Source: Spirochaetia bacterium (GTDB lineage Bacteria > Spirochaetota > Spirochaetia > WTKD01 > G963693115). Taken from it: DNA of 64,000 bases. The stretch is taken from assembly GCA_965226055.1 (NCBI GenBank), contig CBDDCA010000006.1, forward strand, positions 32,001-96,000, read 5' to 3'. Numbering within the stretch: position 1 is the stretch's first letter; each line of letters starts with the position of its first letter. The notes under the pieces were generated by a model. It was given only the letters and a program-made list of their open reading frames with translations, was not told the origin of the DNA and searched no databases. The translations under genes and the position numbers were made by a program. Below, one piece after another: positions 5,265 through 28,689 of this stretch.

Positions 5265-6395
5265 ATGATTTCAACAGAAAAATTTGTACATAAACTACTT
5301 GAATCAAAGATCCATTTTTTTACTGGAGTCCCTGATTCTCTCTTAAAAGATTTTGGCAATTACATATACAGTCATATTTCTGCTAACAATCATATTATCG
5401 TAGCAAACGAAGGAAACGCAATAGCACTAGCAGCAGGGAGCTACCTTGCTAACAGTACCATCCCACTTGTGTATTTACAAAATGCAGGATTAGGAAATAT
5501 TGTCAACCCTCTGCTTTCTATGGCAGATGCCTCTCTATACGCTATTCCTATGATTATTTTAGTAGGCTGGCGAGGAAAAGACGGAAAAGATGATGCAGAA
5601 CAACACTTACAACAAGGAGCATGTACTCCCTCTTTGATTGAGGCTATGCAGTACCCTTTTTGTGTTCTTTCTCAACAAGAAGAAACAGCATTACAACAAA
5701 TAGACAAAGCAATAAGATCCATTACTGAAACTCCTCAACCATACTTTTTGTTAGTAGAAAAAGAAACATTCAGTAGCGTCCCTCTTACAAAAAAAGTTGC
5801 TTCTGCAAGCAATATGTCTCGCGAAGAAGCGTTACGTATTGTAGCTCGTTCGTTACCAGAAGACTACTTTGTAGTAACAACAACAGGAAAAACAAGTAGA
5901 GAATGGTACGAAGTACGCGAACAACTACAGCAAAGCCATGATAACGATTTTTTGACTGTAGGAAGCATGGGACACACTTCTAGTATTGCACTTGGCATGG
6001 CAACGCAAAGCAACGCTCATATACTTTGTGTAGATGGAGATGGATCTATGCTCATGCACATGGGTGCTCTTGCGGTTGCTGGCTCAGTACATTTGGAAAA
6101 TTTTCATTATGTACTTATCAATAATCTTTCGCATGAATCAGTGGGAGGATTGCCAACAAATATACATCATATACATTTCGAACAATTTTTTCTCTCCATT
6201 GGGTTTGATGCATATTTTCGTGCCGATACTCCTGAAAGTCTTGAAAATGTAATACACAATTTTATCAACACAAAACATGCAGTACTAGAGATACGAGTAA
6301 AACAAGGGTCTCGAAAAGACTTAAGTCGCCCTGACAAAACATCGGGACAAATATCACAAATATTACGTGAACAATTTATAAAAGCAAAGGAATAA
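5265..6395 (+). CDS. aepY: phosphonopyruvate decarboxylase
   Basis: FFTGVPDSLLK, ANEGNAIALAAG, YLQNAGLGN, TTGKTSRE, FLTVGSMGH, ThDP motif DGDG...NN, HESVGG. Adjacent to PEP mutase. Confidence 0.95.
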   Translation: MISTEKFVHKLLESKIHFFTGVPDSLLKDFGNYIYSHISANNHIIVANEGNAIALAAGSYLANSTIPLVYLQNAGLGNIVNPLLSMADASLYAIPMIILVGWRGKDGKDDAEQHLQQGACTPSLIEAMQYPFCVLSQQEETALQQIDKAIRSITETPQPYFLLVEKETFSSVPLTKKVASASNMSREEALRIVARSLPEDYFVVTTTGKTSREWYEVREQLQQSHDNDFLTVGSMGHTSSIALGMATQSNAHILCVDGDGSMLMHMGALAVAGSVHLENFHYVLINNLSHESVGGLPTNIHHIHFEQFFLSIGFDAYFRADTPESLENVIHNFINTKHAVLEIRVKQGSRKDLSRPDKTSGQISQILREQFIKAKE

Positions 6396-6398
6396 ACT

Positions 6399-7703
6399 AT
6401 GAAAAAAATATATCTTTCAATGGCTGGAGACATTATCCATCAAGGACATATCAATATTATTAAAGCTGCTACTAAACATGGAGAACTTATTGTAGGTTTG
6501 CTTTCTGATACTGTTATTGGCAACAATAAACGCATCCCTATTATGAATTTTGGACAACGAAAAGAAATAATTGAAAACATAAAAGGAGTAAGCCAAGTAA
6601 TAGAACAAAACAGTATTGAATACACCGATAACTTAGAGAAACTAAAACCAGAGTTTGTAATTCATGGGGATGATTGGAAAGTTGGAAAACAAGCATATAT
6701 TCGACAACAGGTAATTGAACAATTAAAGCAATGGAATGGGGAGCTTATAGAAATTCCATACACAGATGGTATCTCTAGTTCTTCAATAGAAGAGCTATTA
6801 CAAGAAAGAGGTGTAAGTGCAGGCGAAAGAAGAAAGCGTTTGCAGCTGCTTCTTTCCACTAAAAATATAGTAAGAGTACTTGAAGCACATAATGGGCTTA
6901 CGGGTCTTATAGTTGAAAAAACAGTGTTACAGGAACATGATGAACGAAAAGAGTTTGATGCTATGTGGATATCCAGCCTCTGTGATTCTACTGCAAAAGG
7001 AAAGCCTGATATAGAGCTTGTAGACTATACTTCGCGCATCAATACTATCAATGAAATTATTGAAGTGACAACAAAGCCAATCATCTTAGATGGTGATACG
7101 GGGGGACTTGTTGAGCATTTTGTATACAATGTCCGCACCTTAGAACGATTAGGCGTAAGTGCTATTATTATAGAAGATAAGGTAGGATTAAAAAAGAACA
7201 GCCTTTTTGGTACCGAAGCTGCCCAACAACAAGCTACTCCTGAAGAATTTGCTCATAAAATTCGTGCAGGAAAACAAGCACAGCTGGGAAACTCCTTTAT
7301 GATCATTGCAAGAATAGAATCGCTTATCCTTAAGCAAGGGATAGACGATGCATTACATCGTGCAAAAGTATATATTGAAGCAGGCACTGATGGAATTATG
7401 ATACATTCAAAAGAAAAAGATGGCAGTGAGATAAAAGAATTTTTACAACGATATAAACAAGAAGTTCCTCGTACAGTACCAGTAGTAGTAGTGCCTACCA
7501 CCTACAATCATATCACAGAACAAGAATTTTATGCTATGGGAGCAAACATAGTCATCTATGCAAATCACCTTATACGAAGTGCATATCTTGCCATGAAAGA
7601 AACTGCAGAAACTATTTTACGTAATGAACGCAGTGCAGAGGTAGACAAGCAATGTCTTCCAATTAAGGAAATACTTACCCTCATTCCACAAATAGTAGAT
7701 TAG
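6399..7703 (+). CDS. aepX: phosphoenolpyruvate mutase (PepM) with N-terminal cytidylyltransferase domain
   Basis: N-terminal HQGH and HGDDW cytidylyltransferase motifs. PepM motifs LEAHNG, DGDTGG, the diagnostic EDKxxxxxNS (EDKVGLKKNS), ARIES and IYANH. Confidence 0.96.
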   Translation: MKKIYLSMAGDIIHQGHINIIKAATKHGELIVGLLSDTVIGNNKRIPIMNFGQRKEIIENIKGVSQVIEQNSIEYTDNLEKLKPEFVIHGDDWKVGKQAYIRQQVIEQLKQWNGELIEIPYTDGISSSSIEELLQERGVSAGERRKRLQLLLSTKNIVRVLEAHNGLTGLIVEKTVLQEHDERKEFDAMWISSLCDSTAKGKPDIELVDYTSRINTINEIIEVTTKPIILDGDTGGLVEHFVYNVRTLERLGVSAIIIEDKVGLKKNSLFGTEAAQQQATPEEFAHKIRAGKQAQLGNSFMIIARIESLILKQGIDDALHRAKVYIEAGTDGIMIHSKEKDGSEIKEFLQRYKQEVPRTVPVVVVPTTYNHITEQEFYAMGANIVIYANHLIRSAYLAMKETAETILRNERSAEVDKQCLPIKEILTLIPQIVD

Positions 7704-7745
7704 AGAAAATACACTGCCTTACCTTTGCCGCAGACTATTTATACA

Positions 7746-7780
7746 AGGAAAAAGAGAGTGCTATGCACTCTCTTTTTCCT
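7746..7780. terminator. bidirectional intrinsic terminator
   Basis: Perfect 16-bp stem aggaaaaagagagtgc-tat-gcactctctttttcct between the convergent pepM and lipoprotein genes. Confidence 0.85.
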
Positions 7781-7788
7781 ACACTACC

Positions 7789-10700
7789 CTACGATGAGGG
7801 ACATGCTACTTTATCAGTTTTATCCTTTGGGTACTGTGCTGTTTTGCCAGCCATAGCTGAACCCTCAAACTCACTTTTACCTGATGATAATTGCGTTTTA
7901 CACAATTTCCATGATGATAAATCTTGATCAAATGCACTAGCTTGGAAAAATACCAAAGTTACATCAGTAACATTCCTTACCTTCCAATTTCCTATATCTT
8001 GATTAAAGGCGTTTGTTTGAGCAAACATTTGATTTATATTCATTACATTTTCCACATCCCAATCTCCTATATCTTGATTAAAAACACTTGCAACAAGAAA
8101 CATGGTAGTCATATCCGTTACTTTTGCCACATCCCAATCTCCTATATCTTGATTAAAAACACTTGCACCCGCAAACATACCCCTCATACTAGTTACACTG
8201 CTGGTATTCCACCGTATTATGTCCCCATTAAAAGCACTATCTCTAAAAAACAAACCACCCATATCAGTAATAGCACTGGTGTCTATCATGTTGAGATTGG
8301 GACTAGGGTTACTACTCTTCCCTCCTGTAGCTTGTCTTGTCTTTTCTTCACTGATAATAGTTTGTAGTTCTGACGTTTTCGTTGGTCTATAATAGGACTC
8401 TGCTTTTCCTGATGGTGCTGTTCTTAACTCTGTCTGTATAACAATAGTCGCTGGTACTTTTTTCTTTGAAGCGGTTATTGTACACTGTGCTACATCATAG
8501 AAATAGCTAGTAATAGCAGGGTCACGTATATTGGATTTGTTTGCTATGCCTGTTATGGTAACTGTTTTGCTACTCTGATCAAACGATACTGTAAGGCCTG
8601 TCTCTTTTTTGATTTTCTCTGCATCTGCCTCTAGTATGTTTGCATCACAGGTAAAGGCAGAGTTACTAGTAAGTACTCTTGTAGTATTTGATGCTAGTGC
8701 TGTGCCTACTTCTGCTGATACTATGCTAGTGTTTCCTATAGATATTGCACTTACTTCAAATTCGTGGCGTTGTCCTGTTGATACTTTTGTGTCATCAGTG
8801 CTGTTTACTGCTTGCACTACTATTTCGTAGGTCGTTCCGTTTGTCAATCCTGTCAGGGTAGTGTTGGTTGTTCCTGCTGCTACTGTTGTGGGGCTTGAGT
8901 CTGCTTGTTTTATTGCTGCTACACTTCTTGCACTGCCACCTTTGGCTACTTTGTATACTTTGTACGATACTTGTGCTACTGTTAGGGTAGCTCCTGTGTT
9001 TGTTTTGTGACTTGCACTGAGGCTAGGGGCTGTCCACGATACTCTCATACCTGTCTGGGCTACTCTTGTTTGTATACTGCTTACTTCTGCGGGGGCAGTC
9101 GCCTGCGATGCTGTCGTTACACTTGCCACTGTCGATACTGCTTTTTTACTTGTGTCTGTTTTTATTGCTACTTCTACCACAAAGTAGTACTTTGTCGCTC
9201 CTTTTATTGCTACTACTGGTGCTGTGTCTGAAGACAAGCCTAAACTGGCAAGGGACTGTACTGTGTACACTCCGCTTGTTACACTGCCTAGGTTTATCTT
9301 TCTGCCTGCAAGTACTTCTGCTACAGTAGCTGTGCCGTCTTTCTGTAAGCCATACACTGTGTATACTAGCTGATTGCTTGCTGTTATGTTTGTGCCATCG
9401 TAGTCTTTTGCTCCTGTAAATGTGCTTAACTCGGTAAGTACCAGCTTTATTGTGCCTGCTGTGTTTGTTGACGGTGATACTACCAGCTTTCCTGTCAGTA
9501 ATGACTGGCTGGGTGCTACTGCTTTGGAAGTATAGATTTCCTTTATTTCTGTTACATCGGTGTAAAAGCCTGCAGGAAAGAGCTTGTCGCTATTTGTTGC
9601 ATCGTAATTGGGGGATGTTGTGTTTACTATCCTCACTCCTATGTAGTAGTCCTTTGCTGTTTCTATGGGCGTTGCTCCTGCATTGCTTCCACTGGTACTG
9701 TCTACTATTGCTATGGATATTGTGTCTTGAGTTGTTCCTGTTGCTTTTGTGTATTTTGCTACTTTTACACTACTTTTTTCCACTGCCCATAAAGCCGATA
9801 CGCTGGCAGGCTTTCCTGTGCTATCTTCTTTCTTGAGGTATAGCACATAGTACGCAAGGTCTGTCGCTTCAAGGGCATTGCCATTTGCCTTGCTCACTCC
9901 TGCTATTGCTGAGGCATTTACTTGTACTGTTATGACTTTTTTCCCTCTATTGCTTCCTGTGCTAGGCACTGCAAATACCACTGCATTATTTGTAGTATAG
10001 GTTGTTACTTTTGGTGTGCTTGGGGGAGCAGTAAGGGTTGCTTTCTTTATTGTTGCTGATGTTCCTGTACTATACGAAGGATTGAGGCTGTTTATCGCTT
10101 CTACTCCTGCGGTATAGTCTGCTCCTTTTGTTCCTATAAATGTTACTTTTAATTCTGCACTGTTTCCTGCTAGCTCCCGTGTTTGTACTCCTGCAAGGGC
10201 TTTTATTTCGTCTAGTGTCTTTGTGCTGTGGTCTCCTGCTACTATGTATACTTTGTATTGTATTTGTGCTTGCGTGAGTTTTGCTCCACTGGGTGCTTTG
10301 TTATCATTGGTAATAGTACCTGCACTAAATGTATAGACTGCTGTTGCGGTTGTTTGTGTTACTGACTCTACGGAGAGCTTTGCATCTTTTGCAGCGGGCG
10401 GTGCTGTCGAGGTGCTATCGTATACTGCTACTGCATCACTCAGTGCGGTTACGGGGCTTACTCTGTTATTTGCTATTTGCAGAAAATCAAAGCGATAGTC
10501 TTTTTTATTTGATTGGCTCTTAGGTACTTCTAAGCCATCTGCTATGCCAAAGCTAATGGTGGTTGCTGTTCTTGTTATGCTTTTTTCTGCTATTAAGGTA
10601 GCTCCATCTTTCATACGCAGGGTGTAGTATCGCCCTATGCCAGGAGCATTCTTAAAAGTTGCTTTTATTTGTATTGCTCCTGTTGTATCAAGAGTAGGCT

Positions 10701-12504
10701 TGCTTTGAAAGAGATCTTCTGAGGGAGCTGTGAGTGAGTTGGGGGTTGTTATGTCTTTTGTTGCTTGGCTACTTTTGTTTTCTGAGTAATCAAGCGTGAG
10801 TATTGTTATTGTGTATGTTTTTCCTTGCGTGAGTTCTTCGACAGAGAGCGATGTTGTGGGATAGGGTATTTTCTTCTCGCTCAGTACTGTGGTGCTTGTG
10901 CCTTTTTCTGCTATGCTTATGCTGTATTCTTTTATGTCTTTGTTATTGGCTTTTGTTACATCGGGTGCTGTCCATGTTATCTGTGTGCCTATCTTTGTGG
11001 GTGATACAAAGGGATAGCTTGCTTGTATGCTTGTTACTGCATCGGGGGCGGTGCTATCTGCTGCAGTAGTGACTGTAGCATTTTCTGCTGTTCCTTTGTT
11101 GCCTGCACTGTCCATCGATACGACTGCCACTGTATACTCGGTGGTTGCTTTGAGGCCTGTTATCTGTGTATTGCGTACTGTTCTCTCTGTTATTGTTACT
11201 GTCTTTGCTGCTGTTGTGCTGTCCTTTTCTGTTGCTGTTATAGTCACTCCTGCATAGTCTCGTACATCAGGGGCTTGCCAGCCTACTACTAGGCTTGTTG
11301 CTCCTCCTGTGGCACTTACATTACTTACAGGTTCTGTGCTTTTGTCTGTTGTTGCTTGTTCTTTTGACACTGCAGTGGAATACTTTCCGTTTTGAGAAAC
11401 ATACACTTCTACTTTGTAAGTAAGCGTGCCATAGAGTTTTGTGAGTGCTATGCCATCTTTTGCTACATACACAGTGGCGTACTCTTGGTTGTCTGCACTT
11501 GCTCCGCTGACATTTGTTGCACTTGTATCTTTGTCTATTGTCTCTTCTGCTACTACTGTATTTGTTGCAGTTGCTATCACTCGTACTTGGAGGCTTTTTT
11601 CTGTACTTCCTGTTCCAAAGTCAAAACTCCCCCACTTGATAAGCAGGCTTTCATCGGCTGGGCTATTGCTTTTATCGTTTGCTGTTACTGTAAGGTCTGA
11701 TGCGGAAAGTGGCGTTACTGTTTGTGAGAGTGCTGATGGCACTATGCCTCTGAGTGCTTGCTTTGCCGTGCTTTCGTTACCGTTGCTATCTTTGTACACT
11801 ACCACTATATCATAGGCTATGCCATCTATAGTGGGGACAGCAATGCTCACCTCTCCTTGTGTTACATCTTGTACTGTTACTTCTGTCTTTACCCCAGTAG
11901 TTCTTTCTATCACTTGTATTGTGGCTTCTGCTATGTCTGTCTTGCCTGATGAGAGCAGTGCTTTGTCCCATGTTATCTTTATGCCATTTGTTGCTGATTC
12001 TACTGCTACCTGTGTAAAGGTGTCCTGCGGTGCAGTTTCATCGGTTAGTGTTGTCACAGAGCGGGTTGTTTTTGGTGATACTTCTGAGTCTTTTTGTGCT
12101 TCTATCTCTACAGTATAATCAGTGGTAGCATGCAAGCCTCTGAGTACATAGGGTCTGTTTTGTTGAAACAATGCACGATATTCTATTGCAGGAACACGCA
12201 CTTGTATGGACTGTGCTGGTGCAGTAGATGTAGCTTTTACAACTACATGCGTGGCATCGCTGGGAGCTTGCCAGCGTAACGAGAGTGTCCCATCGTTGCC
12301 TGCTGCGTGTATCTGCACATTGGACACTGATGCGAGTGTCGGTGTTACCTGTTTTCCCCCTCCGCCTGATGAACTGCTACTTCCCTCCGAACATCCTACG
12401 AGTACGAGGGTAATCATTGCTAGCACTAAAAATAGTGCAACAACTATAAATATATTCAGCTTACCATTTAGCTGATAGTTTAGTTTTTCATTACTTTTTT
12501 TCAT
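7789..12504 (-). CDS. giant surface lipoprotein with fibronectin type III-like repeats and C-terminal DUF285/BspA-type repeats
   Basis: Lipobox LVLVG-C followed by a Ser/Gly tether. Repeated Fn3 signatures (LRWQAP...GLHATTDYTV; VGWQAP...GLKATTEYTV; SWTAP...GLTNGTTYEI). C-terminal 25-aa FNQDIGDWDV..V..M..MF repeats. Confidence 0.85.
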   Translation of the reverse strand: MKKSNEKLNYQLNGKLNIFIVVALFLVLAMITLVLVGCSEGSSSSSGGGGKQVTPTLASVSNVQIHAAGNDGTLSLRWQAPSDATHVVVKATSTAPAQSIQVRVPAIEYRALFQQNRPYVLRGLHATTDYTVEIEAQKDSEVSPKTTRSVTTLTDETAPQDTFTQVAVESATNGIKITWDKALLSSGKTDIAEATIQVIERTTGVKTEVTVQDVTQGEVSIAVPTIDGIAYDIVVVYKDSNGNESTAKQALRGIVPSALSQTVTPLSASDLTVTANDKSNSPADESLLIKWGSFDFGTGSTEKSLQVRVIATATNTVVAEETIDKDTSATNVSGASADNQEYATVYVAKDGIALTKLYGTLTYKVEVYVSQNGKYSTAVSKEQATTDKSTEPVSNVSATGGATSLVVGWQAPDVRDYAGVTITATEKDSTTAAKTVTITERTVRNTQITGLKATTEYTVAVVSMDSAGNKGTAENATVTTAADSTAPDAVTSIQASYPFVSPTKIGTQITWTAPDVTKANNKDIKEYSISIAEKGTSTTVLSEKKIPYPTTSLSVEELTQGKTYTITILTLDYSENKSSQATKDITTPNSLTAPSEDLFQSKPTLDTTGAIQIKATFKNAPGIGRYYTLRMKDGATLIAEKSITRTATTISFGIADGLEVPKSQSNKKDYRFDFLQIANNRVSPVTALSDAVAVYDSTSTAPPAAKDAKLSVESVTQTTATAVYTFSAGTITNDNKAPSGAKLTQAQIQYKVYIVAGDHSTKTLDEIKALAGVQTRELAGNSAELKVTFIGTKGADYTAGVEAINSLNPSYSTGTSATIKKATLTAPPSTPKVTTYTTNNAVVFAVPSTGSNRGKKVITVQVNASAIAGVSKANGNALEATDLAYYVLYLKKEDSTGKPASVSALWAVEKSSVKVAKYTKATGTTQDTISIAIVDSTSGSNAGATPIETAKDYYIGVRIVNTTSPNYDATNSDKLFPAGFYTDVTEIKEIYTSKAVAPSQSLLTGKLVVSPSTNTAGTIKLVLTELSTFTGAKDYDGTNITASNQLVYTVYGLQKDGTATVAEVLAGRKINLGSVTSGVYTVQSLASLGLSSDTAPVVAIKGATKYYFVVEVAIKTDTSKKAVSTVASVTTASQATAPAEVSSIQTRVAQTGMRVSWTAPSLSASHKTNTGATLTVAQVSYKVYKVAKGGSARSVAAIKQADSSPTTVAAGTTNTTLTGLTNGTTYEIVVQAVNSTDDTKVSTGQRHEFEVSAISIGNTSIVSAEVGTALASNTTRVLTSNSAFTCDANILEADAEKIKKETGLTVSFDQSSKTVTITGIANKSNIRDPAITSYFYDVAQCTITASKKKVPATIVIQTELRTAPSGKAESYYRPTKTSELQTIISEEKTRQATGGKSSNPSPNLNMIDTSAITDMGGLFFRDSAFNGDIIRWNTSSVTSMRGMFAGASVFNQDIGDWDVAKVTDMTTMFLVASVFNQDIGDWDVENVMNINQMFAQTNAFNQDIGNWKVRNVTDVTLVFFQASAFDQDLSSWKLCKTQLSSGKSEFEGSAMAGKTAQYPKDKTDKVACPSS
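7900..8290 (-). repeat. 75-bp-period DUF285 coding repeats
   Basis: About five 25-aa units. A 41-bp block is identical at 8052-8092 and 8127-8167. Confidence 0.85.
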
Positions 12505-12558
12505 AATGATCTCCTTGTTGGTATCTCTATTGTGTAATTATCATTACACCTAAGCATC

Positions 12559-12674
12559 ATTATAGCACAAATACTATTTTTGTGTATATTTCATAACATA
12601 TAAAATTAAAAAAAAAAAAAAATGGGATGAAATACACAAAAATATACAGCAAAAAGTGATAATAATGCTACTAT
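12559..12674. promoter_or_regulatory. divergent promoter region with A15 tract and flanking inverted repeat
   Basis: Extended -10 TGCTATAAT on the minus strand (12559-12567) and TGCTACTAT on the plus strand (12666-12674). A15 at 12608-12622. Imperfect inverted repeat 12575-12594/12627-12644. Confidence 0.55.
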
Positions 12675-12729
12675 AGAGATGCTATGAACAACAAAATATA
12701 TACTAAATACATTATAATATAAATAGTAT

Positions 12730-13890: not shown

Positions 13891-13899
13891 GCTGGTAAT

Positions 13900-14643: not shown

Positions 14644-14704
14644 AGTTATAGTATAGTGCTATTATCACAAAATTGTAATATATTATTTTTACTGTTGTTA
14701 TATC

Positions 14705-16036: not shown

Positions 16037-16059
16037 ATACAATAGTATACTCCTTTTTA

Positions 16060-19146: not shown

Positions 19147-19150
19147 AGTA

Positions 19151-22100: not shown

Positions 22101-22324
22101 CCTTGAAAGCTCTGCTTAATTTCATCTAACTTTGCTTGCATGGACTGTCGCTGTAATAATTCCTTTTTTTGTAAGCGTTCTGCCAGCATATACACAGGCA
22201 ACAATAGGAGAGAAATAAAGACACTTAACAGAACAATAGCATATCCATAATTATGCGAAAATTGATACAAGAATAGAAAGATATATTCTAAAAAAGACTC
22301 CAAAGGAGAAAGAAATGATGCCAT
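19151..22324 (-). CDS. YidC-like/sulfatase-like fusion (copy C)
   Basis: Same architecture; NIVVVLLD, YTSTSVP, THQPY, IVSDHG. Confidence 0.85.
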   Translation of the reverse strand: MASFLSPLESFLEYIFLFLYQFSHNYGYAIVLLSVFISLLLLPVYMLAERLQKKELLQRQSMQAKLDEIKQSFQGQERFMMIQSLYRLHKYHPVLGLRSIGSLLIQIPFFFAAYHMLRNFTALEGVSFLFIEDLSKADALFPFGRYRINMLPFVMTAINIMAANVYTRRVDPNSLMSTWNMALVFFVLLYAMPSGLVLYWTCNNVFTLLKNIILSLRLQKNKNKEESAWQIIQKKLLMFIENDRKVIKVVFFLWLFGGYLVLAYMLRLVNRLRGEVPNTLLGIAIVAMVISESILLLYFYRKQIHKEKLQKKFQHDTKHYNSKNAPRVYSISIVKYSIFFGSVACMIIGSAMIYYYIQLPVFMIDRDAILFKLSAFAILIFPNAVLFPYVVSVLYRLSHTYTESSAVFLKRKAELRQWWYILLASSGAVALLIFLVLPAEIYKSDPVSVSVSFTAVLIYVLPYIIASIVIPMLIWICCPYRVKNYVSCIVFVLSSVVLLYALVIPFDIGGLDHFILMSPQSLSPRVSIYVLEGIALICFCFWIFSFLKNSNNRKIIITVLVAVNGVFTYMLVDFGLWLQNDAVVARISEAYKQDASSGVESGDAQDVSVPRIADRLFSFSSTKQNIVVVLLDMANGGDMQRVLDERPNIKERLKGFTWYPNTLSVSAYTSTSVPAMMAGWNYTPENIVDIKGDNLAEKVVGAYDTMFSRFKRYNYLIRMTGSLYYKGQYAQCKDLEKQDIACLDYWDDSFVSYWKQNNREQQKEIDISLSERNIVLLILTGVLRSVPVMMKYAVYDLGNWNLSDSEFKNQIGYRHAIKEWAVLDSLQSTSSRLEDDRETYSMEDISGTFTFIHNSVTHQPYALDKHCRLQNKEFPDEDVKNNYTGNSAYFSFRCSIESLTQWFTWLQEHNVYDNTKIIIVSDHGGNFYSDYMNSNNISSELLGIDYPHVFTRVHALLLVKDFNQNNAFSIDTRLMSNVDTAAMMYHSIERYVPPSDAHAFDKIDYAKQLVPDRTVPIYHTEFYNWVDLIKEKKQFKIKNKYTVSDTIFELKNWNKVQ

Positions 22325-22328
22325 AGTA

Positions 22329-25300
22329 TTATTTTATCCTTTTCCAGTTCTTTAGTTCAAATATAGTATCGCTAACAGTATATTTATTTTTTATCTTAAA
22401 TTGTTTCTTCTCTTTTACAAACCCCACCCAATTATAAAATTCAGTATGATATATTGGCACTGTTCTATCAGGTACTAACTGCTTTGCATAATCAATTTTG
22501 TCAAAGGCATGTGCATCACTGGGAGGAACATATCCCTCTATACTATGGTACATCATTGCTGCCGTATCAACATTACTCATCAATCTTGTATCTATACTAA
22601 ACGCATTGTTTTGATTAAAATCTTTTACTAATAACAGAGCATGTGCACGAGGAAACATATATGAAAAATCTGTCCCTAACAACTCAGAGCTTATGTTGTT
22701 ACTATTCATATAATCTCTATAACCATTACCTCCATGATCAGATACTATAATGATTTTTGTATTATCATACATAGCATGCTCCTGCAACCATGCGAACCAT
22801 TGTGTGAGTGATTCTATGCTACATCGAAAGGAAAAATACGCAGAGTTTCCAGCATAGTTATTTTCTATATTTTCATCAGGAAATTCCTTATTTTGTAACA
22901 CACAGTGTTTATCAAGAGCATAGGGACGATGCGTAATATTATTGTGTATAAATGTAAATGTTCCTGCACTGTCCTCCATTGAGTATGTTTCTCTATCATC
23001 TTCTAAACGAGAAGAAGTACTTCGTAAAGAATCAAGTACTGCCCATGATTTTAATGCATACCTATATCCTTCTTGATTCTTAAATTCAGAGGTATTTATA
23101 TTCCAATTTCCATGATCATATACCGCATATTTCATCATCACGGGCACTGAGCGTAGTACCCCTGTCAATATCAGCAATACAATATTTCTCTCCGAAAAAG
23201 ATACATCTGTCTCTGCCTGTTGTTCTCTATTATTCTGTTTCCAATAACTCACAAAAGAATCATCCCAATAATCAAGACAGGCAATATCCTGCTTTTCCAG
23301 ATCCTTACACTGAGCATTATCTCCTCCGAGGTATGATACACCAGACATTCGCATCAAATAATTATATTGCTTAAAGCGAGAAAACATAGTATCGTATGCT
23401 CCCACTACTTTTTCCGCAAGATTTTCCCCTTTTAATATTACCATATTTTCAGGAGTATAGTTCCACCCTGCTATCATAGCTGATATACTTGCACCCGTAT
23501 AGGTAGAAACACTGAGCGTATTAGGATACCAAGTAAATCCTTTTAAGCGTTCTTTTATATTAGGCCTCTCATCTAAGACCCGTTGCATATCACCACCACT
23601 TGCCATATCAAGCAACACCACCACTATATTTTGCTTTGTAGAAGAAAAAGAAAATAAACGATCGGCAATACGAGGAACAGAAACATCTTGTGTATCTCCA
23701 TTCTCCATTCCCGATGTAGCATCTTGCTTTTGTGCATCTGATACTTGTGCTACCACAGCATCATTTTGCAACCACAGCCCAAAATCAACCAACATATATG
23801 TAAACACTCCATTGACTGCCACTAACACAGTAATTATTATTTTTCTATTGTTACTATTCTTTAAAAAAGAAAATACAAAAAAACAAAAGCATATCAGAGC
23901 TATCCCCTCTAATACATATATACTAGCACGAGGCGAAAGAGATTGCGGTGACATTAAAATAAAATGATCAAGCCCTCCTATATCAAACGGAACAACTAAT
24001 GCGTATAACAATACTACAGACGATAGCACAAACACAATACAACTCACGTAGCTCTTTACTCTATACGGACAGCATATCCATATAAGCATAGGAATAACTA
24101 TACTTGCTATAATATACGGCAACACATATATCAGCACAGCAGTAAACGATACAGATACTGATATAGGATCACTTTTATATATCTCTGCAGGAAGCACTAA
24201 AAAAATAAGCAAAGCAACAGCACCACTGCTTGCTAGCATGATATACCACCACTGTCTTAGCTCTGCTTTCCTTTTAATAAGCATAGTAGGAGTCTTTGCA
24301 TGTATCCCTGTATACTGTAAACGATATAACACATAAGGAAACAGCACTGCGTTAGGAAAAATCGTAATAGCAAAGGCACTTAGCTTCAACAATACAGTGT
24401 CAACATTTATCATGAACACTGGAAGCTGAATATAATAATACATCATAGCAGATCCAATGATCATACATGCAACACTCCCAAAAAAGAGGCTATACTTTAC
24501 AATAGAAGTACTATACACACGAGGAGCATTCTTACTGTTATAATGTTTAGTATCATGCTGAAACTTTTTCTGTAACTTTTCTTTATGTATCTGCTTCCGA
24601 TAAAAATACAATAGAAGAATACTTTCACTTATCACCATCGCAACGATAGCAATTCCTAACAAAGTATTTGGTACTTCCCCTCTCAATCTATTTACTAAAC
24701 GGAACACATACGCAAGTACTAAATATCCACCAAACAACCACAGAAAGAATACAACCTTTATCACCTTTCTATCGTTCTCTATAAATATAAGTAATTTCTT
24801 TTGTATAATCTGCCAAGCACTCTCTTCTTTGTCTTTATTCTTTTGTAAACGAAGCGATAATACAATATTTTTTACGAAGGCAAATATATTATTACAAGTC
24901 CAATACAGCACTAATCCCGATGGCATAGCATATAACAACACAAAAAATATCAATGCCATATTCCATGCTGATACTAAGGATTTTGGATCTACTCTTCGTG
25001 TGTACACATTTGCTGCCATGATATTTATTGCAGTCATAATAAAAGGAAGCATATTGATACGATAGCGACCAAACGGAAACAACGCATCTGCTTTTGAGAG
25101 ATCTTCAATGAATAAAAACGAAACTCCTTCCAGTGCAGTAAAATTCCTTAACATATGATATGCCGCAAAGAAAAATGGTATTTGTATAAGCAACGACCCT
25201 ATAGACCGTAAGCCCAGCACTGGATGATACTTATGTAGCCGATACAAACTTTGTATCATCATAAACCGCTCTTGTCCTTGAAAGCTCCCTTTAATTTCAT

Positions 25301-25499
25301 CTAACTTTGCTTGCATGGACTGTCGCTGTAATAATTCCTTTTTTTGTAAGCGTTCTGCCAGCATATACACAGGCAACAATAGGAGTGAAATAAAGAAACT
25401 TAACAGAACAATAGCATATCCATAATTATGTGAAAGCTGATACAAAAATATAAAGATATATTCTAAAAAAGACTCCAAAGGAGAAAAAAATGATGCCAT
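22329..25499 (-). CDS. YidC-like/sulfatase-like fusion (copy B)
   Basis: Same architecture; YTGASIS, THRPY, IVSDHG. Confidence 0.85.
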   Translation of the reverse strand: MASFFSPLESFLEYIFIFLYQLSHNYGYAIVLLSFFISLLLLPVYMLAERLQKKELLQRQSMQAKLDEIKGSFQGQERFMMIQSLYRLHKYHPVLGLRSIGSLLIQIPFFFAAYHMLRNFTALEGVSFLFIEDLSKADALFPFGRYRINMLPFIMTAINIMAANVYTRRVDPKSLVSAWNMALIFFVLLYAMPSGLVLYWTCNNIFAFVKNIVLSLRLQKNKDKEESAWQIIQKKLLIFIENDRKVIKVVFFLWLFGGYLVLAYVFRLVNRLRGEVPNTLLGIAIVAMVISESILLLYFYRKQIHKEKLQKKFQHDTKHYNSKNAPRVYSTSIVKYSLFFGSVACMIIGSAMMYYYIQLPVFMINVDTVLLKLSAFAITIFPNAVLFPYVLYRLQYTGIHAKTPTMLIKRKAELRQWWYIMLASSGAVALLIFLVLPAEIYKSDPISVSVSFTAVLIYVLPYIIASIVIPMLIWICCPYRVKSYVSCIVFVLSSVVLLYALVVPFDIGGLDHFILMSPQSLSPRASIYVLEGIALICFCFFVFSFLKNSNNRKIIITVLVAVNGVFTYMLVDFGLWLQNDAVVAQVSDAQKQDATSGMENGDTQDVSVPRIADRLFSFSSTKQNIVVVLLDMASGGDMQRVLDERPNIKERLKGFTWYPNTLSVSTYTGASISAMIAGWNYTPENMVILKGENLAEKVVGAYDTMFSRFKQYNYLMRMSGVSYLGGDNAQCKDLEKQDIACLDYWDDSFVSYWKQNNREQQAETDVSFSERNIVLLILTGVLRSVPVMMKYAVYDHGNWNINTSEFKNQEGYRYALKSWAVLDSLRSTSSRLEDDRETYSMEDSAGTFTFIHNNITHRPYALDKHCVLQNKEFPDENIENNYAGNSAYFSFRCSIESLTQWFAWLQEHAMYDNTKIIIVSDHGGNGYRDYMNSNNISSELLGTDFSYMFPRAHALLLVKDFNQNNAFSIDTRLMSNVDTAAMMYHSIEGYVPPSDAHAFDKIDYAKQLVPDRTVPIYHTEFYNWVGFVKEKKQFKIKNKYTVSDTIFELKNWKRIK

Positions 25500-25503
25500 A
25501 GCA

Positions 25504-28500
25504 TTATTGTACCTTATTCCAGTTCTTTAGTTCAAATATAGTATCGCTAACAGTATATTTATTTTTTATCTTAAATTGTTTCTTCTCTTTTACAAAATCT
25601 ACCCAATTATAAAATTCAGTATGATATATTGGCACTGTTCTATCAGGTACTAATTGCTTTGCATAATCAACTTTGTCAAAGGCATGTGCATCACTGGGAG
25701 GAACATATCCCTCTATGCTATAGTACATCATTGCTGCTGTATCAACATTACTCATCAACCTTGTATCTATACTAAACGCATTGTTTTGATTAAAATCTTT
25801 TACTAATAACAGAGCATGTGCACGGGTAAACATATATGGATAATCTATCCCTAATAACTCAGAGCTTATGTTGTTACTATTCATATAATCTCTATAACCA
25901 TTACCTCCATGATCAGATACTATAATGATTTTTGTATTATCATACATAGCATGCTCCTGCAACCATGCAAACCATTGTGTGAGTGATTCTATGCTACATC
26001 GAAAGGAAAAATACGCAGAGTTTCCAGCATAGTTATTTTCTATATTTTCATCAGGAAATTCCTTATTTTGTAACCTACAGTGTTTATCAAGAGCATAGGG
26101 ACGATGCGTAATATTATTGTGTATAAATGTAAATGTTCCTGCAATATCCTCTGTTGAATATGTTTCCCTACCATCTTCTAAATGAGAAGAAGTACTTCGT
26201 AAAGAATCAAGTACTGCCCATTCTTTTAATGCCCACCTATATCCATCTTGATTCTTAAATTCAGAGGTATTCATATTCCAATTTCCACGATCATATATCA
26301 CATTTTTCATCATCACTGGCACTGAGCGTAGTACCCCCGCCATTATCAACAACGAAATAGTTCTCTCTGAAAAAGATATATCTGTCTCTCTCTGCTGTTC
26401 TCTATTATTTTGTTTCCAATAACTCATAAAAGAATCATCCCAATAATCAAGACAGACAATATCCTGCTTTTCCAGATCTTTACATTGAGCATTATCTCCT
26501 CCATAGTATAATACACCAGTCATTCGTATCAGATAATTATATCGCTTAAAGAGAGAAAACATAGTATCGTATGCTCCCACTACTTTTTCCGCAAGATTTT
26601 CCCCTTTAACATCAATAATATTTTCAGGAGCATAGTTCCAGCCTGCCATCATAGCTAGTTTACTTGCACTCGTATAGGTAGAAACACTGAGCGTATTAGG
26701 ATACCAAGTAAATCCTTTTAAGTGTTCTTTTATACTAGGTCTCTCATCTAATATCCGTTGCATATCACCACCATTTGCCATATCAAGCAACACCACCACT
26801 ATATTTTGCTTTGTAGAAGAGAAAGAAAATAAACGATCAGCAATACGAGGAACAGAAACATCTTGTGTATCTCCATTCTCCATTCCCGATGTAGCATCTT
26901 GCTTTTGTGCATCTGATACTTGTGCTACCACAGCATCATTTTGCAACCACAGCCCAAAATCAACCAACATATATATAAACACTCCATTGACTGCCACTAA
27001 CACAGTAATTATTATTTTTCTATTGTTACTATGTTTCAAAAAAGAAAATATCCAAAAACAAAAACATATCAGAGCTATCCCTTCTAATACATATATACTA
27101 GCACGAGGCGAAAGAGATCTCGGTGACATTAAAATAAAATGATCAAGCCCCCCTATATCAAACGGAACAACTAATGCGTATAACAATACTACAGACGATA
27201 GCACAAACACAATACAACTCACGTAGCTCTTTACTCTATACGGACAGCATATCCATATAAGCATAGGAATAACTATACTTGCTATAATATACGGCAACAC
27301 ATATATCAGCACAGCAGTAAACGATACAGATACTGAGGTAGGATCACTTTTATATATCTCTGCAGGAAGCACTAAAAAAATAAGCAAAGCAACAGCACTA
27401 CTGCTTGCTAGCAGGATATACCACCACTGTCTTACTGCAACTTTCTCTTTAAGAAAAACACCAGACGCCTTTGCCTTTCTATACTGTAAACGATATAACA
27501 CATACACCACATAAGGAAACAGTACTGCGTTAGGAAAAATAAGAATAGCAAAAGATCGTAGCTTAAACCATACAGCATCAATATCTATCATGGACACTGG
27601 AAGTTGAATATAATAATATATCATAACAGATCCAATGATCATACATGCAACACTCCCAAAAAAAATGCTATACTTTACAATAGAAGTACTGTACACATGA
27701 GGAACATTCTTACTGTTATAGTGTTTAGTATCATGCTGAAACTTTTTCTGTAACTTTTCCTTATATATCTGCTTTCGATAAAAATACAATAGAAGAATAC
27801 CTTCACTTATCACCATTGCAACGATAGCAATTCCTAACAAAGTATTTGGCACTTCCCCTCTCAATCTATTTACTAAACGGAGCACATACGCAAGCACTAA
27901 ATATCCACCGAACAACCACAGAAAGAATACAACCTTTATCACCTTTCTATCGTTCTCTATAAACATAAGTAATTTCTTTTGTATAATCTGCCAAGCACTC
28001 TCTTCTTCTTTGTCTTTATTCTTTTGTAAACGAAGCGATAACACAATATTTTTTACGAAGGCAAATATATTATTACAAGTCCAATACAGCACTAATCCTG
28101 ATGGCATAGCGTACAACAACACAAAAAATATCAATGCTATATTCCATGTTGACATTAAGGAGTTTGGATCTACTCTTCGCGTATACACATTTGCTGCCAT
28201 AATATTTATTGCAGTCATAACAAAAGGAAGCACATTGATACGATAGCGACCAAATGGCAGCAACGCATCTGCTTTTGACAGATCTTCAATAAATAAAAAC
28301 GAAACTCCCTCCAGTGCAGTAAAATCCCTCAACATATGATATGCCGCAAAGAAAAATGGTATTTGTATAAGCAACGACCCTATAGAACGCAACCCCATCA
28401 CCGGATGATACTTATGCAGCCGATACAAACTTTGTATCATCATAAACCGCTCTTGTCCTTGAAAGCTCCCTTTAATTTCATCAAGCTTCTTTTTCATAGC

Positions 28501-28689
28501 CTGTTGCTTAAAAAGCTCCTGTTTCTGCAACTTTTCTGCTATCATATACACAGGCAAAAGTATACTATTTACAATGATACTTAACAAAATGATAGAAACT
28601 CCATAGTTATTTGAAATACTATACGAAAAAGTAAAAAGATACTGCAAGAATATTTCAAAAGGAGAAAAAATAGCTGCCATACTACCCAT
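25504..28689 (-). CDS. YidC-like/sulfatase-like fusion (copy A)
   Basis: Same architecture; distinct first ~70 aa; YTSASKL, THRPY, IVSDHG. Confidence 0.85.
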   Translation of the reverse strand: MGSMAAIFSPFEIFLQYLFTFSYSISNNYGVSIILLSIIVNSILLPVYMIAEKLQKQELFKQQAMKKKLDEIKGSFQGQERFMMIQSLYRLHKYHPVMGLRSIGSLLIQIPFFFAAYHMLRDFTALEGVSFLFIEDLSKADALLPFGRYRINVLPFVMTAINIMAANVYTRRVDPNSLMSTWNIALIFFVLLYAMPSGLVLYWTCNNIFAFVKNIVLSLRLQKNKDKEEESAWQIIQKKLLMFIENDRKVIKVVFFLWLFGGYLVLAYVLRLVNRLRGEVPNTLLGIAIVAMVISEGILLLYFYRKQIYKEKLQKKFQHDTKHYNSKNVPHVYSTSIVKYSIFFGSVACMIIGSVMIYYYIQLPVSMIDIDAVWFKLRSFAILIFPNAVLFPYVVYVLYRLQYRKAKASGVFLKEKVAVRQWWYILLASSSAVALLIFLVLPAEIYKSDPTSVSVSFTAVLIYVLPYIIASIVIPMLIWICCPYRVKSYVSCIVFVLSSVVLLYALVVPFDIGGLDHFILMSPRSLSPRASIYVLEGIALICFCFWIFSFLKHSNNRKIIITVLVAVNGVFIYMLVDFGLWLQNDAVVAQVSDAQKQDATSGMENGDTQDVSVPRIADRLFSFSSTKQNIVVVLLDMANGGDMQRILDERPSIKEHLKGFTWYPNTLSVSTYTSASKLAMMAGWNYAPENIIDVKGENLAEKVVGAYDTMFSLFKRYNYLIRMTGVLYYGGDNAQCKDLEKQDIVCLDYWDDSFMSYWKQNNREQQRETDISFSERTISLLIMAGVLRSVPVMMKNVIYDRGNWNMNTSEFKNQDGYRWALKEWAVLDSLRSTSSHLEDGRETYSTEDIAGTFTFIHNNITHRPYALDKHCRLQNKEFPDENIENNYAGNSAYFSFRCSIESLTQWFAWLQEHAMYDNTKIIIVSDHGGNGYRDYMNSNNISSELLGIDYPYMFTRAHALLLVKDFNQNNAFSIDTRLMSNVDTAAMMYYSIEGYVPPSDAHAFDKVDYAKQLVPDRTVPIYHTEFYNWVDFVKEKKQFKIKNKYTVSDTIFELKNWNKVQ

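Follow-up and report, generated by a model that had tools for sequence, protein, structure and literature searches.

Why do genes for a carbon–phosphorus compound lie next to a packed run of proteins that start with a YidC-like module? The question is raised by a window of 64,000 nucleotides (the whole stretch of DNA analysed) from a Spirochaetia bacterium. The locus is interpreted here as an envelope head-group decoration system made of three co-evolving modules, loaded in this genome with 2-aminoethylphosphonate (AEP); the probability of this explanation as a whole is set at about 0.45. As to the general function, the attachment of small phospho or phosphono head groups activated with CDP or CMP is likely. 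The fusions, their TagF-like partner and the AEP genes probably constitute an undescribed machine which puts a carbon–phosphorus group on the envelope. The features of the locus are the following.

5265–6395, plus strand: Ppd, phosphonopyruvate decarboxylase (TIGR03297 equivalog, 383 bits, cut-off 312.5)
6399–7703, plus strand: cytidylyltransferase–PEP mutase fusion, Fom1-like architecture (TIGR02320, 404 bits; PF01467 at aa 11–131)
7789–12504, minus strand: DUF285/fn3 protein, 1571 aa, between pepM and aepZ (DUF285 E 1e-53, four fn3 stretches)
12730–13890, plus strand: AepZ/PhnW-type AEP aminotransferase (TIGR03301, 392 bits, cut-off 360.8)
13900–14643, minus strand: LicC/PntC-family nucleotidyltransferase, end of the minus-strand run (NTP_transf_3, 41 bits)
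14705–16078, minus strand: TagF-like phosphotransferase with N-terminal membrane anchor (PF04464, Glyphos_transf, 43 bits, cut-off 22.1)
16060–19146, minus strand: paralog 4, 1028 aa, diverged copy with YidC-like module, membrane block and AP-fold domain (Pfam scan)
19151–22324, minus strand: paralog 3, 1057 aa, YidC-like fusion (Pfam scan)
22329–25499, minus strand: paralog 2, 1056 aa, YidC-like fusion (Pfam scan)
25504–28689, minus strand: paralog 1, 1061 aa, the copy modelled (pLDDT 87.4, pTM 0.71)

All genes and motifs named in a preliminary description of this DNA were found in place by open reading frames, family scans and translations. The Ppd gene carries TPP_enzyme_N and TPP_enzyme_C domains. 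In the adjacent fusion, the N-terminal domain resembles the Fom1 cytidylyltransferase domain (structure 5x3d, E 2e-42) and the C-terminal domain the PEP mutase structures 5unc and 1m1b, with the PepM motif EDKVGLKKNS at aa 259. Genes of the minus-strand run are separated by gaps of 4, 4, 4, 23 and 61 bases, the likely start of the TagF-like gene being the ATG at 16036. The solved structures nearest to the stand-alone nucleotidyltransferase are LicC of S. pneumoniae (1jyk, E 7e-10) and PntC-AEPT of T. denticola (6pd1, E 8e-6). Of the two, LicC, which is specific for phosphocholine, is the closer in sequence, and what the minus-strand operon handles is therefore deduced from the AEP genes on its flank.

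Each of the four paralogs features a 60KD_IMP domain at aa ~26–215 (E 2e-25 to 3e-24) and a Sulfatase domain (PF00884) at aa ~595–930 (E 4e-12 to 1e-6); the source genome has no PF00884 matches other than these four. The model of paralog 1 has 14 membrane helices and can be divided into three parts.

28015–28689, minus strand: aa 1–225, YidC-like module of five helices, groove arginine replaced (N41; alignment to 3wvf and 3wo7)
27460–28014, minus strand: aa 226–410, four-helix linker block (helices in the model)
25507–27459, minus strand: aa 411–1061, five membrane helices and an outward AP-fold domain, EptA/LtaS/PbgA-like (Foldseek, invariant residues)

The linker is poorly conserved across the family, and is skipped by most distant relatives, which match paralog 1 in two stretches (~8–220 and ~415–1060). 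Lysines and arginines number 29 inside and 10 outside in paralog 1 (family means 20 and 8.7), and this topology would place the C-terminal AP-fold domain on the outer side of the membrane. Residues D636, T673, H862, D926 and H927 (numbered as in paralog 1) are invariant in the 40 members of the family alignment, and the motifs LLD, PNTLSxxxxT, TH.PY and SDH are present in the translations of all four paralogs. The preliminary description had placed this domain outside the cytoplasm and credited it with a complete Thr/Asp/His site, and had named a cytoplasmic domain, a missing metal site or a lack of linkage in other genomes as observations that would speak against it; the model favours the outward location, the site is complete, and the linkage recurs elsewhere, as detailed below.

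Foldseek matches of the model include PbgA, EptA, MCR-1, LtaS and YidC. Membrane and soluble parts align jointly to PbgA (6xlp, 736 columns), EptA (5fgn, 666) and MCR-1 (9nww, 653), LtaS to the soluble part; the phosphonate monoester hydrolase 2w8s is also found among the AP-fold matches. The fusions share with EptA/MCR-1, LtaS/LtaP and PbgA (YejM) an outward AP-fold domain behind five membrane helices, the Thr nucleophile and the Asp/His metal ligands, and sequence-profile matches to LtaS and MCR-1 span the TH.P and SDH region, yet identity to EptA/MCR-1, LtaS and PbgA is only 10–14%. In contrast to these enzymes, the fusions carry a YidC-like module and a four-helix linker ahead of the unit, and are tied genetically to a cytoplasmic TagF-like enzyme and to activation genes of the CDP/CMP type. 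Such ties suggest that a dedicated donor is used, rather than bulk PE or PG.

The YidC-like module retains the five-helix core with cytoplasmic hairpin of the YidC/Oxa1/Alb3 proteins (3wvf/6al2; YidC2 3wo6/3wo7). The fold is intact (PF02096, E ~1e-25; RMSD 3.9–4.2 Å, about 4 Å to 6al2 and 3wvf over 215–221 columns, at 26–27% identity), and the LLIQxPxF and YW..NN motifs are kept. It differs from YidC in lacking the N-terminal periplasmic domain and the lipoprotein signal, in having an insert of four residues, the last of them acidic and invariant, and in being either fused to an enzyme or a 230-aa stand-alone protein tied to a TagF-like gene. In an alignment with 3wvf (E. coli YidC) and 3wo7 (B. 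halodurans YidC2), paralog 1 has N at the position of the groove arginine; 40/40 family members have N, S or T there, and the family profile shows the same replacement against YidC of E. coli and of T. maritima. A separate canonical YidC in the source genome keeps the arginine. The position of E52 is acidic in all 40 members.

The YidC module of paralog 4 shares 93–94% identity with its counterparts in paralogs 2 and 3, whereas identity falls to 38% in the membrane block and to 41–42% in the AP domain; dS values are 0.17–0.21 in the YidC module and 1.5–2.6 elsewhere. All four paralogs are under purifying selection (omega 0.19–0.59), including paralog 3 when compared to the others (omega 0.24–0.59).

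The occurrence of the module was analyzed in 151 genomes of the same class as the source (class sample) and at 78 foreign loci (locus sample). The YidC-like module and the TagF-like subfamily were each found in 22 of the 151 genomes, which are related and hence not independent. A tally of the two lists gives 21 genomes with both, one with each partner alone, and 128 with neither; the two genomes with a single partner are both fragmented assemblies. The TagF-like gene is present in 54/78 foreign loci, adjacent and co-directional in 53, and in 21 of the 27 loci whose flanks extend to 5 kb or more on either side; no TagF-like gene was found within 10 kb in the other six (L013, L018, L053, L074, L080, L083). 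The conserved unit is thus the YidC-like module plus the TagF-like enzyme, the latter, and not the AEP genes, being the most constant partner. At least two fusion ORFs reside in 38/78 loci. The parts also occur in other combinations. Stand-alone YidC-like proteins of 230 aa adjoin TagF-like genes in L020, L025, L031, L041 and L050; L020 is a three-gene split form, in which the Sulfatase-domain protein (597 aa) is separate. The membrane–AP unit of paralog 1 (aa 411–1061) recurs in protein P0142, a fusion of TagF-like domain, five membrane helices and AP domain (hhalign probability 100, E 1.8e-53). In the source genome PF04464 has exactly two matches, both adjoining YidC-like fusions, and the second locus consists of the fusion and TagF-like pair only, without glycan genes.

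The cargo genes are more variable. PepM was found within 10 kb in 16 of the 78 foreign loci, Ppd in 13, a nucleotidyltransferase in 28. Among 104 operon mates scanned, seven were Fe-ADH, as in the hydroxyethylphosphonate route; 94 further mates included seven extra nucleotidyltransferases and seven EamA transporters, and a nucleotidyltransferase fused to a CobD-like decarboxylase, pointing to amino-alcohol activation, is present at other loci. Ten genomes of the class sample have both PepM and the TagF-like subfamily, against 3.4 expected, and in seven of these the two lie no more than 22 kb apart; 13 of the 23 PepM genomes lack the module, and 12 of the 22 module genomes lack a PEP mutase match. 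The linkage to phosphonate and other head-group activation genes, proposed in the preliminary description, therefore extends to other genomes, while the specificity for phosphonates does not hold: the cargo is interchangeable. The 104 and 94 operon mates include no conserved lipid-related gene.

The TagF-like family profile matches Cps3D (8qoy, E 1e-10), TarL (8va1) and TagF (3l7j). As in TagF/TarF/TarL, Cps3D and Bcs3, PF04464 scores above cut-off and the PSW, RPHP and DxSxxxxD stretches align; a CDP/CMP-linked donor would be expected by family. The enzyme of the locus starts with YLDPGTGS followed by a hydrophobic helix; across the subfamily Y, D and P of the motif are conserved in 37/37 sequences, and the helix is followed by a K/R-rich stretch. 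These enzymes differ from TagF/TarF/TarL as they are short, single-domain proteins (about 410–460 aa) whose N-terminus bears the Y[IL]DPGTGS membrane helix, their neighbours suggest a phosphonate or amino-alcohol donor instead of CDP-glycerol or CDP-ribitol, and no TagGH-type polymer export system is conserved beside them among the operon mates scanned.

A four-step pathway may be drawn from these data. Parts list, topology and gene linkage are those described above; a lipid-linked intermediate and a conduit role of the YidC-like module are what we infer. AEP would be made by PepM, Ppd and AepZ, and converted to CMP-AEP by the PepM-fused cytidylyltransferase domain, the LicC/PntC-like enzyme, or both, an assignment made on family membership and the published enzymology of relatives. 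The Y[IL]DPGTGS helix would tether the TagF-like enzyme to the inner face of the membrane, where the phosphonyl group of AEP would be moved from CMP-AEP to a hydroxyl group on an acceptor embedded in the membrane, for which diacylglycerol or a glycolipid is the simplest candidate. The acceptors of TagF-family enzymes are, to our knowledge, glycans or polymers, not diacylglycerol. A phosphonate monoester lipid would result, built like the donors of LtaS and EptA; such an intermediate has about an even chance of existing. The YidC-like module, with the groove arginine changed to N, S or T, would dock the TagF-like enzyme and give the polar head group a passage to the outer leaflet, a conduit role which is plausible at slightly less than even odds. 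Loss of the arginine could equally mean that a function has been lost. A preprint reports the scrambling of NBD-PE by purified E. coli YidC in liposomes, and in simulations (bioRxiv 10.1101/2023.09.01.555937); with lipid scrambling already within the reach of ordinary YidC, the need for a dedicated module is not obvious. By homology, the five-helix and AP-fold unit would finally take the head group on Thr673, with D636, D926, H927 and H862 as metal ligands, and hand it to an acceptor in the periplasm or at the cell surface. The five paralogs of the genome, these four and one at another place, would differ in the acceptor they serve.

The same parts may be read otherwise. The YidC-like groove could be only a receptor for the Y[IL]DPGTGS helix, joining cytoplasmic and outer enzymes and moving nothing, the intermediate flipping spontaneously or via another protein. 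The invariant N-terminus of the TagF-like enzyme (motif, hydrophobic helix, K/R stretch) has indeed the shape of a classic YidC client, the two partners co-occur almost perfectly at the genome level, and the YidC modules of paralogs 4, 2 and 3 have been kept alike in an operon with a single TagF-like gene. Recent gene conversion alone, however, could explain the latter; four modules for one TagF-like gene, as the 38 loci with at least two fusion ORFs, fit a need by each outer enzyme, and no other flippase is conserved in the module among the operon mates scanned. Docking alone is unlikely. Alternatively, the module could be a true insertase for its own polytopic body or for the TagF-like N-tail, fused only for efficiency, as the intact fold and the client-like N-terminus would allow. 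The hallmark arginine is missing in 40/40 members and kept in the canonical YidC of the same genome, an insertion catalyst need not be encoded once per outer enzyme, and the stand-alone forms, unlike general insertases, stay tied to TagF-like genes; this role is very unlikely.

Other readings concern the outer domains. These could be EptA/LtaS-like, drawing phosphoethanolamine or glycerol phosphate from bulk phospholipids, while the TagF-like enzyme, at the cytoplasmic face, decorates a lipid-linked glycan with AEP, as LicD does with phosphocholine; the genes would travel together only because the same polymer is modified. Bulk lipids are used or bound by EptA, MCR-1 and PbgA, the proteins nearest in structure over the full length; operon mates often include glycosyltransferases and sugar-nucleotide enzymes; and a LicD-type logic for CMP-AEP has been proposed by Rice et al. 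(PMC6697681). Two activities in parallel nevertheless leave unexplained the joining of TagF-like domain and membrane–AP unit in the P0142 polypeptide, the near one-to-one co-occurrence of YidC-like module and TagF-like subfamily, and the second locus of the source genome, and are quite unlikely. Finally, AP superfamily matches include sulfatases and phosphonate monoester hydrolases, and the domains could be outward hydrolases of phosphonate or phosphate esters, scavenging or trimming head groups. In sulfatases and phosphonate monoester hydrolases the nucleophile is a formylglycine derived from Cys or Ser; here it is Thr, the five-helix anchor resembles that of lipid-using transferases, and the linked phosphonate genes are biosynthetic, not catabolic, which makes hydrolysis extremely improbable.

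The proposed decoration pathway has the logic of GtrABC, ArnC/ArnEF/ArnT and CsbB/GtcA/YfhO, in which a small group is loaded on a carrier inside, flipped, and transferred outside. There, the donors are polyprenyl-phosphate sugars, small proteins of the GtrA or EamA type act as flippases, and GT-C enzymes carry out the transfer; the YidC-like/TagF-like module includes none of these families.

The PF01467–PepM fusion, Ppd, AEP transaminase and second LicC-type nucleotidyltransferase have the arrangement of the phosphonyl tailoring (Pnt) clusters for surface modification described by Rice et al. in 2019 (PMC6697681). In that paper, formation of CMP-AEP by PntC enzymes is demonstrated, and later tailoring steps 'remain enigmatic'. 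Selenomonas pepM clusters 'encode multiple sulfatases', earlier assigned to phosphonolipids, according to Li and Horsman 2022 (PMC8942020). For the later steps the available parts of both papers propose LicD-like transferases or glycosyltransferases, and mention neither a YidC domain nor a TagF-like partner. A literature search found no paper describing the YidC-like fusion family, and public records name the fusions only as YidC insertases, both as anticipated in the preliminary description.

The 1571-aa DUF285/fn3 protein, absent from that description, is probably outside the system. Its gene has a GC content of 42–43%, against ~35% in the surroundings. DUF285 matches number 249 in the source genome, and the position of this one in the locus thus carries no weight.

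The window carries genes for the biosynthesis of 2-aminoethylphosphonate (AEP) and a compact minus-strand run, which opens with four fusion genes (paralogs 1 to 4, in transcription order), continues with a TagF-like gene and ends with a LicC-like nucleotidyltransferase gene. Each fusion protein is made of a YidC-like module, a membrane block and a domain of the alkaline phosphatase (AP) fold. The preliminary description had viewed the region as a candidate phosphonate surface-decoration system built on YidC-sulfatase fusions; all the genes it named were confirmed by ORF listing and family scans, and its interpretation, taken as a whole, is partly supported.

Features of the locus (coordinates in the window; strand; product and basis)
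5265–6395; plus; Ppd (TIGR03297, 383 bits, above cut-off)
6399–7703; plus; fusion of a PF01467 cytidylyltransferase and PEP mutase (TIGR02320, 404 bits, above cut-off; motif EDKVGLKKNS)
7789–12504; minus; DUF285/fn3 protein, 1571 aa, between pepM and aepZ
12730–13890; plus; AEP transaminase (TIGR03301, 392 bits, above cut-off)
13900–14643; minus; LicC-like nucleotidyltransferase, end of the run (PF12804, 41 bits)
14705–16078, likely start 16036; minus; TagF-like gene, after paralog 4 (PF04464, 43 bits, cut-off 22.1)
16060–19146; minus; fusion paralog 4 (ORFs and family scans)
19151–22324; minus; fusion paralog 3 (same basis)
22329–25499; minus; fusion paralog 2 (same basis)
25504–28689; minus; fusion paralog 1 (same basis)

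Genes of the run are separated by 4, 4, 4, 23 and 61 bases. The AEP enzymes PepM, Ppd and AepZ are all recognizable, and the PepM motif EDKXXXXXNS reads EDKVGLKKNS in the 6399–7703 product. The N-terminal domain of this cytidylyltransferase-PepM fusion (CT-PepM) matches the structure of the Fom1 cytidylyltransferase domain (E 2e-42). The nearest solved relative of the stand-alone nucleotidyltransferase is LicC (E 7e-10), followed by the PntC protein 6pd1 (E 8e-6); with LicC ranking ahead of the solved PntC, caution is needed on the cargo assumed for the minus-strand enzyme. The genome (2.25 Mb, 6 contigs, 89% complete) has its nearest public relatives in Spirochaetia, namely L008 (89% identity) and L009.

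The structure of paralog 1 (1061 aa; fusion residues are numbered accordingly) was predicted with the 40-member family alignment, A1. The model (mean pLDDT 87.4, pTM 0.71) features a YidC core of five helices (aa 1–225), a four-helix block (226–410), five further helices (~415–584) and an alpha/beta domain (~615–1061). In Foldseek comparisons with the PDB, the model matches E. coli YidC 6al2 and 3wvf with RMSD of 3.9–4.2 Å and 26–27% identity. Membrane and soluble parts align jointly to PbgA (6xlp, 736 columns), EptA (5fgn, 666) and MCR-1 (9nww, 653), and LtaS ectodomains and many sulfatases are also found among the matches. Distant relatives mostly align in two stretches (~8–220 and ~415–1060). 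As the middle is skipped, the four-helix block is viewed as a variable linker, and the topology is preserved because the number of its helices is even. With 1144 clusters at 50% identity (E ≤ 1e-30) out of 1.84 billion representatives, this is a large family, and members reside in gut, rumen and oral spirochaetes, Clostridia, Bacteroidales, Desulfovibrionales, Sutterella and others.

When the YidC core is oriented as in known YidCs, 29 K+R residues fall in inside loops and 10 in outside loops of paralog 1 (family means 20 and 8.7), which predicts an extracytoplasmic location for the AP-fold catalytic domain. The predicted structure features the helical anchor and extracytoplasmic AP-fold domain of the LtaS/EptA-type anchored AP superfamily. 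D636, T673, H862, D926 and H927, corresponding to the threonine and the Asp/His metal ligands of such enzymes, are invariant in 40/40 A1 members, and the sulfatase CxPxR motif is absent from the four paralogs. The fusion nucleophile would thus be a threonine, as in LtaS and EptA, in contrast to the cysteine motif of sulfatases; the equivalence of T673 to the LtaS/EptA nucleophile is suggested by motif spacing and fold rather than by residue-level structural alignment. On nucleophile, metal site and outward position alike, the results agree with the preliminary description.

All modules can be placed in known superfamilies; the one tested departure is that of the YidC-like module, which according to the alignments lacks the groove arginine of the YidC family. 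PF02096 is found in all four copies (E 2e-25 to 3e-24), TIGR03592 scores 91–94 bits on them (cut-off 84.3), and the five-helix core of the YidC/Oxa1/Alb3 fold is recognized by both family models and Foldseek. The conserved arginine of the hydrophilic groove (R366 in E. coli, R72 in B. halodurans) was located by aligning the module with YidC of E. coli and YidC2 of B. halodurans, and by comparison of the family profile with E. coli and T. maritima YidC. At its position the five copies encoded by this genome have N or S, and 40/40 A1 members have N, S or T; four inserted residues follow, the last of them acidic (E or D in 40/40). The canonical YidC of the same genome (585 aa, 171 bits) keeps the arginine.

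Paralogs 1–3 are 86–90% identical across the membrane block and the AP domain, regions in which paralog 4 is only 38–42% identical to the others. At the protein and DNA levels alike, the YidC-like module of paralog 4 shares 93–94% identity with its counterparts in paralogs 2 and 3, and dS measures 0.17–0.21 in the module as against 1.5–2.6 elsewhere. These values show that the module has recently undergone gene conversion or been exchanged between paralogs. The pattern is reversed in paralog 1 (dS 0.37 in the module, 0.07–0.15 in the rest). Omega values of 0.19–0.59 in all paralog comparisons suggest that all four genes are functional. Five tandem fusion genes, as opposed to the four in the window, are found in near relatives of the same genus (L008 and G093:C1:1686747–1700199), hence the size of the array varies between close kin; at least two fusion ORFs are present in 38 of 78 foreign loci.

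The TagF-like gene is the most constant companion of the fusions. The genome holds only two PF04464 matches, each beside YidC-like fusions, and its PF00884 matches are restricted to the four fusions of the window; no further enzyme of AP or TagF type is encoded in the genome. Another contig carries a fifth fusion (984 aa), at the second locus of the genome (L007), directly preceded by the second TagF-like gene, with no phosphonate or other activation genes nearby. Upstream of this second module (L007:4096–4944 and 5381–8580) are genes for a small DUF285 protein, HslV/HslU and an LtrA-family membrane protein, and downstream of it are fliF/fliG. TagF-like genes were found in 54 of the 78 foreign loci, adjacent and co-directional in 53; where at least 5 kb was available on both sides (27 loci), the gene is present in 21 and absent in 6. 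In the class sample of 151 genomes, 22 have the TagF-like subfamily at E ≤ 1e-40 and 22 have the YidC-like module at E ≤ 1e-30, with both in 21, the module alone in one (G144), the TagF-like gene alone in one (G090) and neither in 128, a count which is descriptive and carries no test because the sampled genomes are kin. The two exceptions are assemblies of 150–390 contigs.

The C-terminal half of the TagF-like proteins, searched as the profile of a 37-member alignment (A2), matches Cps3D (E 1e-10), TarL and TagF (E 1e-4), with PSW, RPHP and DxS stretches aligned; H192, R304, H306 and S353 are invariant in 37/37, and family model and conserved stretches both assign the proteins to the TagF/TarL (PF04464) family. 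The N-terminus features an invariant Y[IL]DPGTGS, a hydrophobic helix (median hydropathy 1.99) and a K/R-rich stretch. Neighbouring genes argue for a donor other than CDP-glycerol or CDP-ribitol.

The modules are found in other arrangements as well. Stand-alone YidC-like proteins of 230 aa (family HMM E ~1e-100) adjoin TagF-like genes in loci L020, L025, L031 (twice), L041 and L050. In L020 a separate 597-aa Sulfatase-domain protein comes next, in a three-gene split form with a PepM gene beside it. The 1212-aa protein P0142 carries a TagF-like domain and a five-helix/AP unit (hhalign probability 100, E 1.8e-53, A1 columns 401–989), and is a second way of joining modules. The C-terminal halves of long TagF-like proteins (~1000–1040 aa, as P0133) and the 594-aa gene following the TagF-like gene in L025 have no detectable relation to the family profile (hhalign probability 7 and 2.5, respectively), so that the AP unit may be missing from them or have diverged very far. 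An open frame of 1399 aa in genome G112 was discarded as a fusion, since a TAG stop lies between its TagF-like and fusion genes.

Genes denoting the cargo vary from locus to locus. In the 78 foreign loci, PepM was found in 16, Ppd in 13, and a nucleotidyltransferase of LicC or CT type in 28. Several loci of Bacteroidales, Salinivirgaceae and Neptunomonas combine CT-PepM, Ppd and an iron alcohol dehydrogenase, that is, the hydroxyethylphosphonate route. Operon mates were scanned in 198 of 213 cases, all except 11 from L007 and four short partial ORFs: iron alcohol dehydrogenases are 7 among the first 104, and the other 94 include NTP_transferase (7), EamA transporters (7) and GT1/GT4 (5–6). In still other loci, where phosphonate genes are absent, the module has beside it a 600-aa protein in which a MobA-like nucleotidyltransferase is joined to a CobD-like threonine-phosphate decarboxylase. 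Three of seven such fusions were checked; the best model is TIGR01140, at 178–190 bits, below cut-off.

Nucleotidyltransferase-CobD-like fusions (locus and coordinates)
L030:4468–6324
L044:5433–7235
L049:6911–8710

These fusions suggest a CDP-amino-alcohol cargo. PepM occurs in 23 of the 151 class-sample genomes, and overlaps with the TagF-like subfamily in 10 genomes, as against 3.4 expected by chance, in 7 of the 10 within 22 kb. A genuine link with phosphonate genes thus exists, as had been anticipated. Restriction to phosphonates does not hold, since 12 module genomes are devoid of PepM; conversely, 13 PepM genomes are devoid of the module. The module is a putative carrier of general use, for phosphate or phosphonate head groups that are small and in most cases amino-bearing.

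The greater part of the capacity of bacteria for phosphonate biosynthesis serves the tailoring of the cell surface. According to a phosphonate genomics paper (PMC6697681), AEP is produced by PepM, Ppd and a transaminase, and is converted to CMP-AEP by LicC-type PntC enzymes; PepM-fused PF01467 domains are known from Fom1, which cytidylylates hydroxyethylphosphonate, and the tailoring steps beyond CMP-AEP are termed enigmatic. A recent preprint reports that purified E. coli YidC scrambles NBD-PE (bioRxiv 10.1101/2023.09.01.555937). A C. difficile flagellin paper was set aside as a precedent, as cd0244 has no defined function there (PMC8861647). The most likely scheme, not a proven one, is loading inside, passage through the YidC-like groove and transfer by the fused outer domain. 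The TagF-like enzyme would take CMP-AEP, isosteric with a CDP-alcohol, and modify an acceptor in the membrane to a phosphonate monoester; the polar, arginine-less groove would hand the head group to the outer leaflet; the fused EptA/LtaS-like unit would accept the group on Thr673 and pass it to an envelope acceptor. Such a route would explain why a cytoplasmic CDP-dependent enzyme is genetically welded to an outward phosphotransferase, why no other conserved flippase is found in the module, and why just the activation genes differ between loci. In its broad form, namely that in at least 6 phyla the YidC fold has been recruited as a dedicated conduit through the cytoplasmic membrane for small phosphate- or phosphonate-linked head groups, and not for proteins, with the groups delivered by a docked TagF-like partner and taken over by the fused transferase of LtaS/EptA type, the reading is given a probability of about one in three (0.35).

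There are four main rivals. The YidC-like module may remain a protein insertase, a view which suits the preserved five-helix core and family scores, and has to accommodate both the replaced arginine and the canonical YidC encoded in the same genome. It may merely dock the N-terminus of the TagF-like enzyme; the invariant start of that enzyme fits docking, which the head-group conduit includes as well. The outer enzymes may use ordinary phospholipids, the TagF-like enzyme acting separately on a glycan; the tight pairing in the class sample would then have to find another reason. Finally, the outer AP-fold domain may be a hydrolase, as the sulfatases among the structural matches allow; the threonine and the five-helix anchor are features shared with lipid-using transferases.

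Literature searches on YidC with sulfatase or phosphonate, glycerophosphotransferase, or LtaS, and on aminoethylphosphonate with TagF, LtaS or EptA, retrieved no description of the fusion or of the TagF pairing. In the portions consulted of two phosphonate genomics papers, YidC and insertase do not occur (PMC6697681, PMC8942020), and glycerophosphotransferase and TagF are each absent from whichever of the two was checked for the term. Li and Horsman 2022 mention Selenomonas pepM clusters with 'multiple sulfatases' (PMC8942020), which may be the same genes. Public records label family proteins YidC insertases, as had been expected, or hypothetical proteins. The locus supplies concrete candidates for the steps following CMP-AEP in phosphonate surface tailoring. 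If the conduit reading is true, those missing steps would be filled by a categorically new class of flippase-coupled decoration machine; the lipid-scrambling side activity of insertases would have become a dedicated, selected function, and the module would offer a clean genetic system to study scrambling. If the module only docks its partner, the YidC groove would still have been put to a new use. In both cases the label 'membrane protein insertase YidC' misleads for the fusions.

The DUF285/fn3 protein was considered as a target of decoration; the location of its gene was given no weight because DUF285 matches number 249 in the 2.25-Mb genome, in dozens of open frames of 1000–2800 aa, and is discounted as evidence. 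A single family of surface proteins has thus expanded to an extreme degree in this genome. AT skew is strongly negative in the gene of the DUF285/fn3 protein, whose GC content is 42–43%, as against ~35% in its surroundings. Both flanks are unrelated to the system, with radical-SAM enzymes and a SocA-like protein at left, Sua5, KduI and ABC transporters at right. Directly left of ppd are found a SocA/Panacea antitoxin-domain protein (3560–4015, minus strand) and a radical SAM protein of the spore-photoproduct-lyase family (4187–5197, plus strand); no link to the system was seen for either. The Sua5/TsaC gene that immediately precedes the run (28757–30130, minus strand) encodes a long protein (457 aa), in which ~90 residues separate the two Pfam domains. 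A promoter/terminator scan gave site counts at chance level (84 vs 93 expected). The best promoter-like site, TTGTCA-18-TATAAT (28805–28776, minus strand, ~87 bases before paralog 1), is a candidate only, and falls within the 3′ end of the Sua5/TsaC gene. In locus L086, of the same class, a Type ISP restriction-modification enzyme of 1141 aa (L086:378–3803, plus strand) is encoded just upstream of a TagF-like and fusion gene pair.
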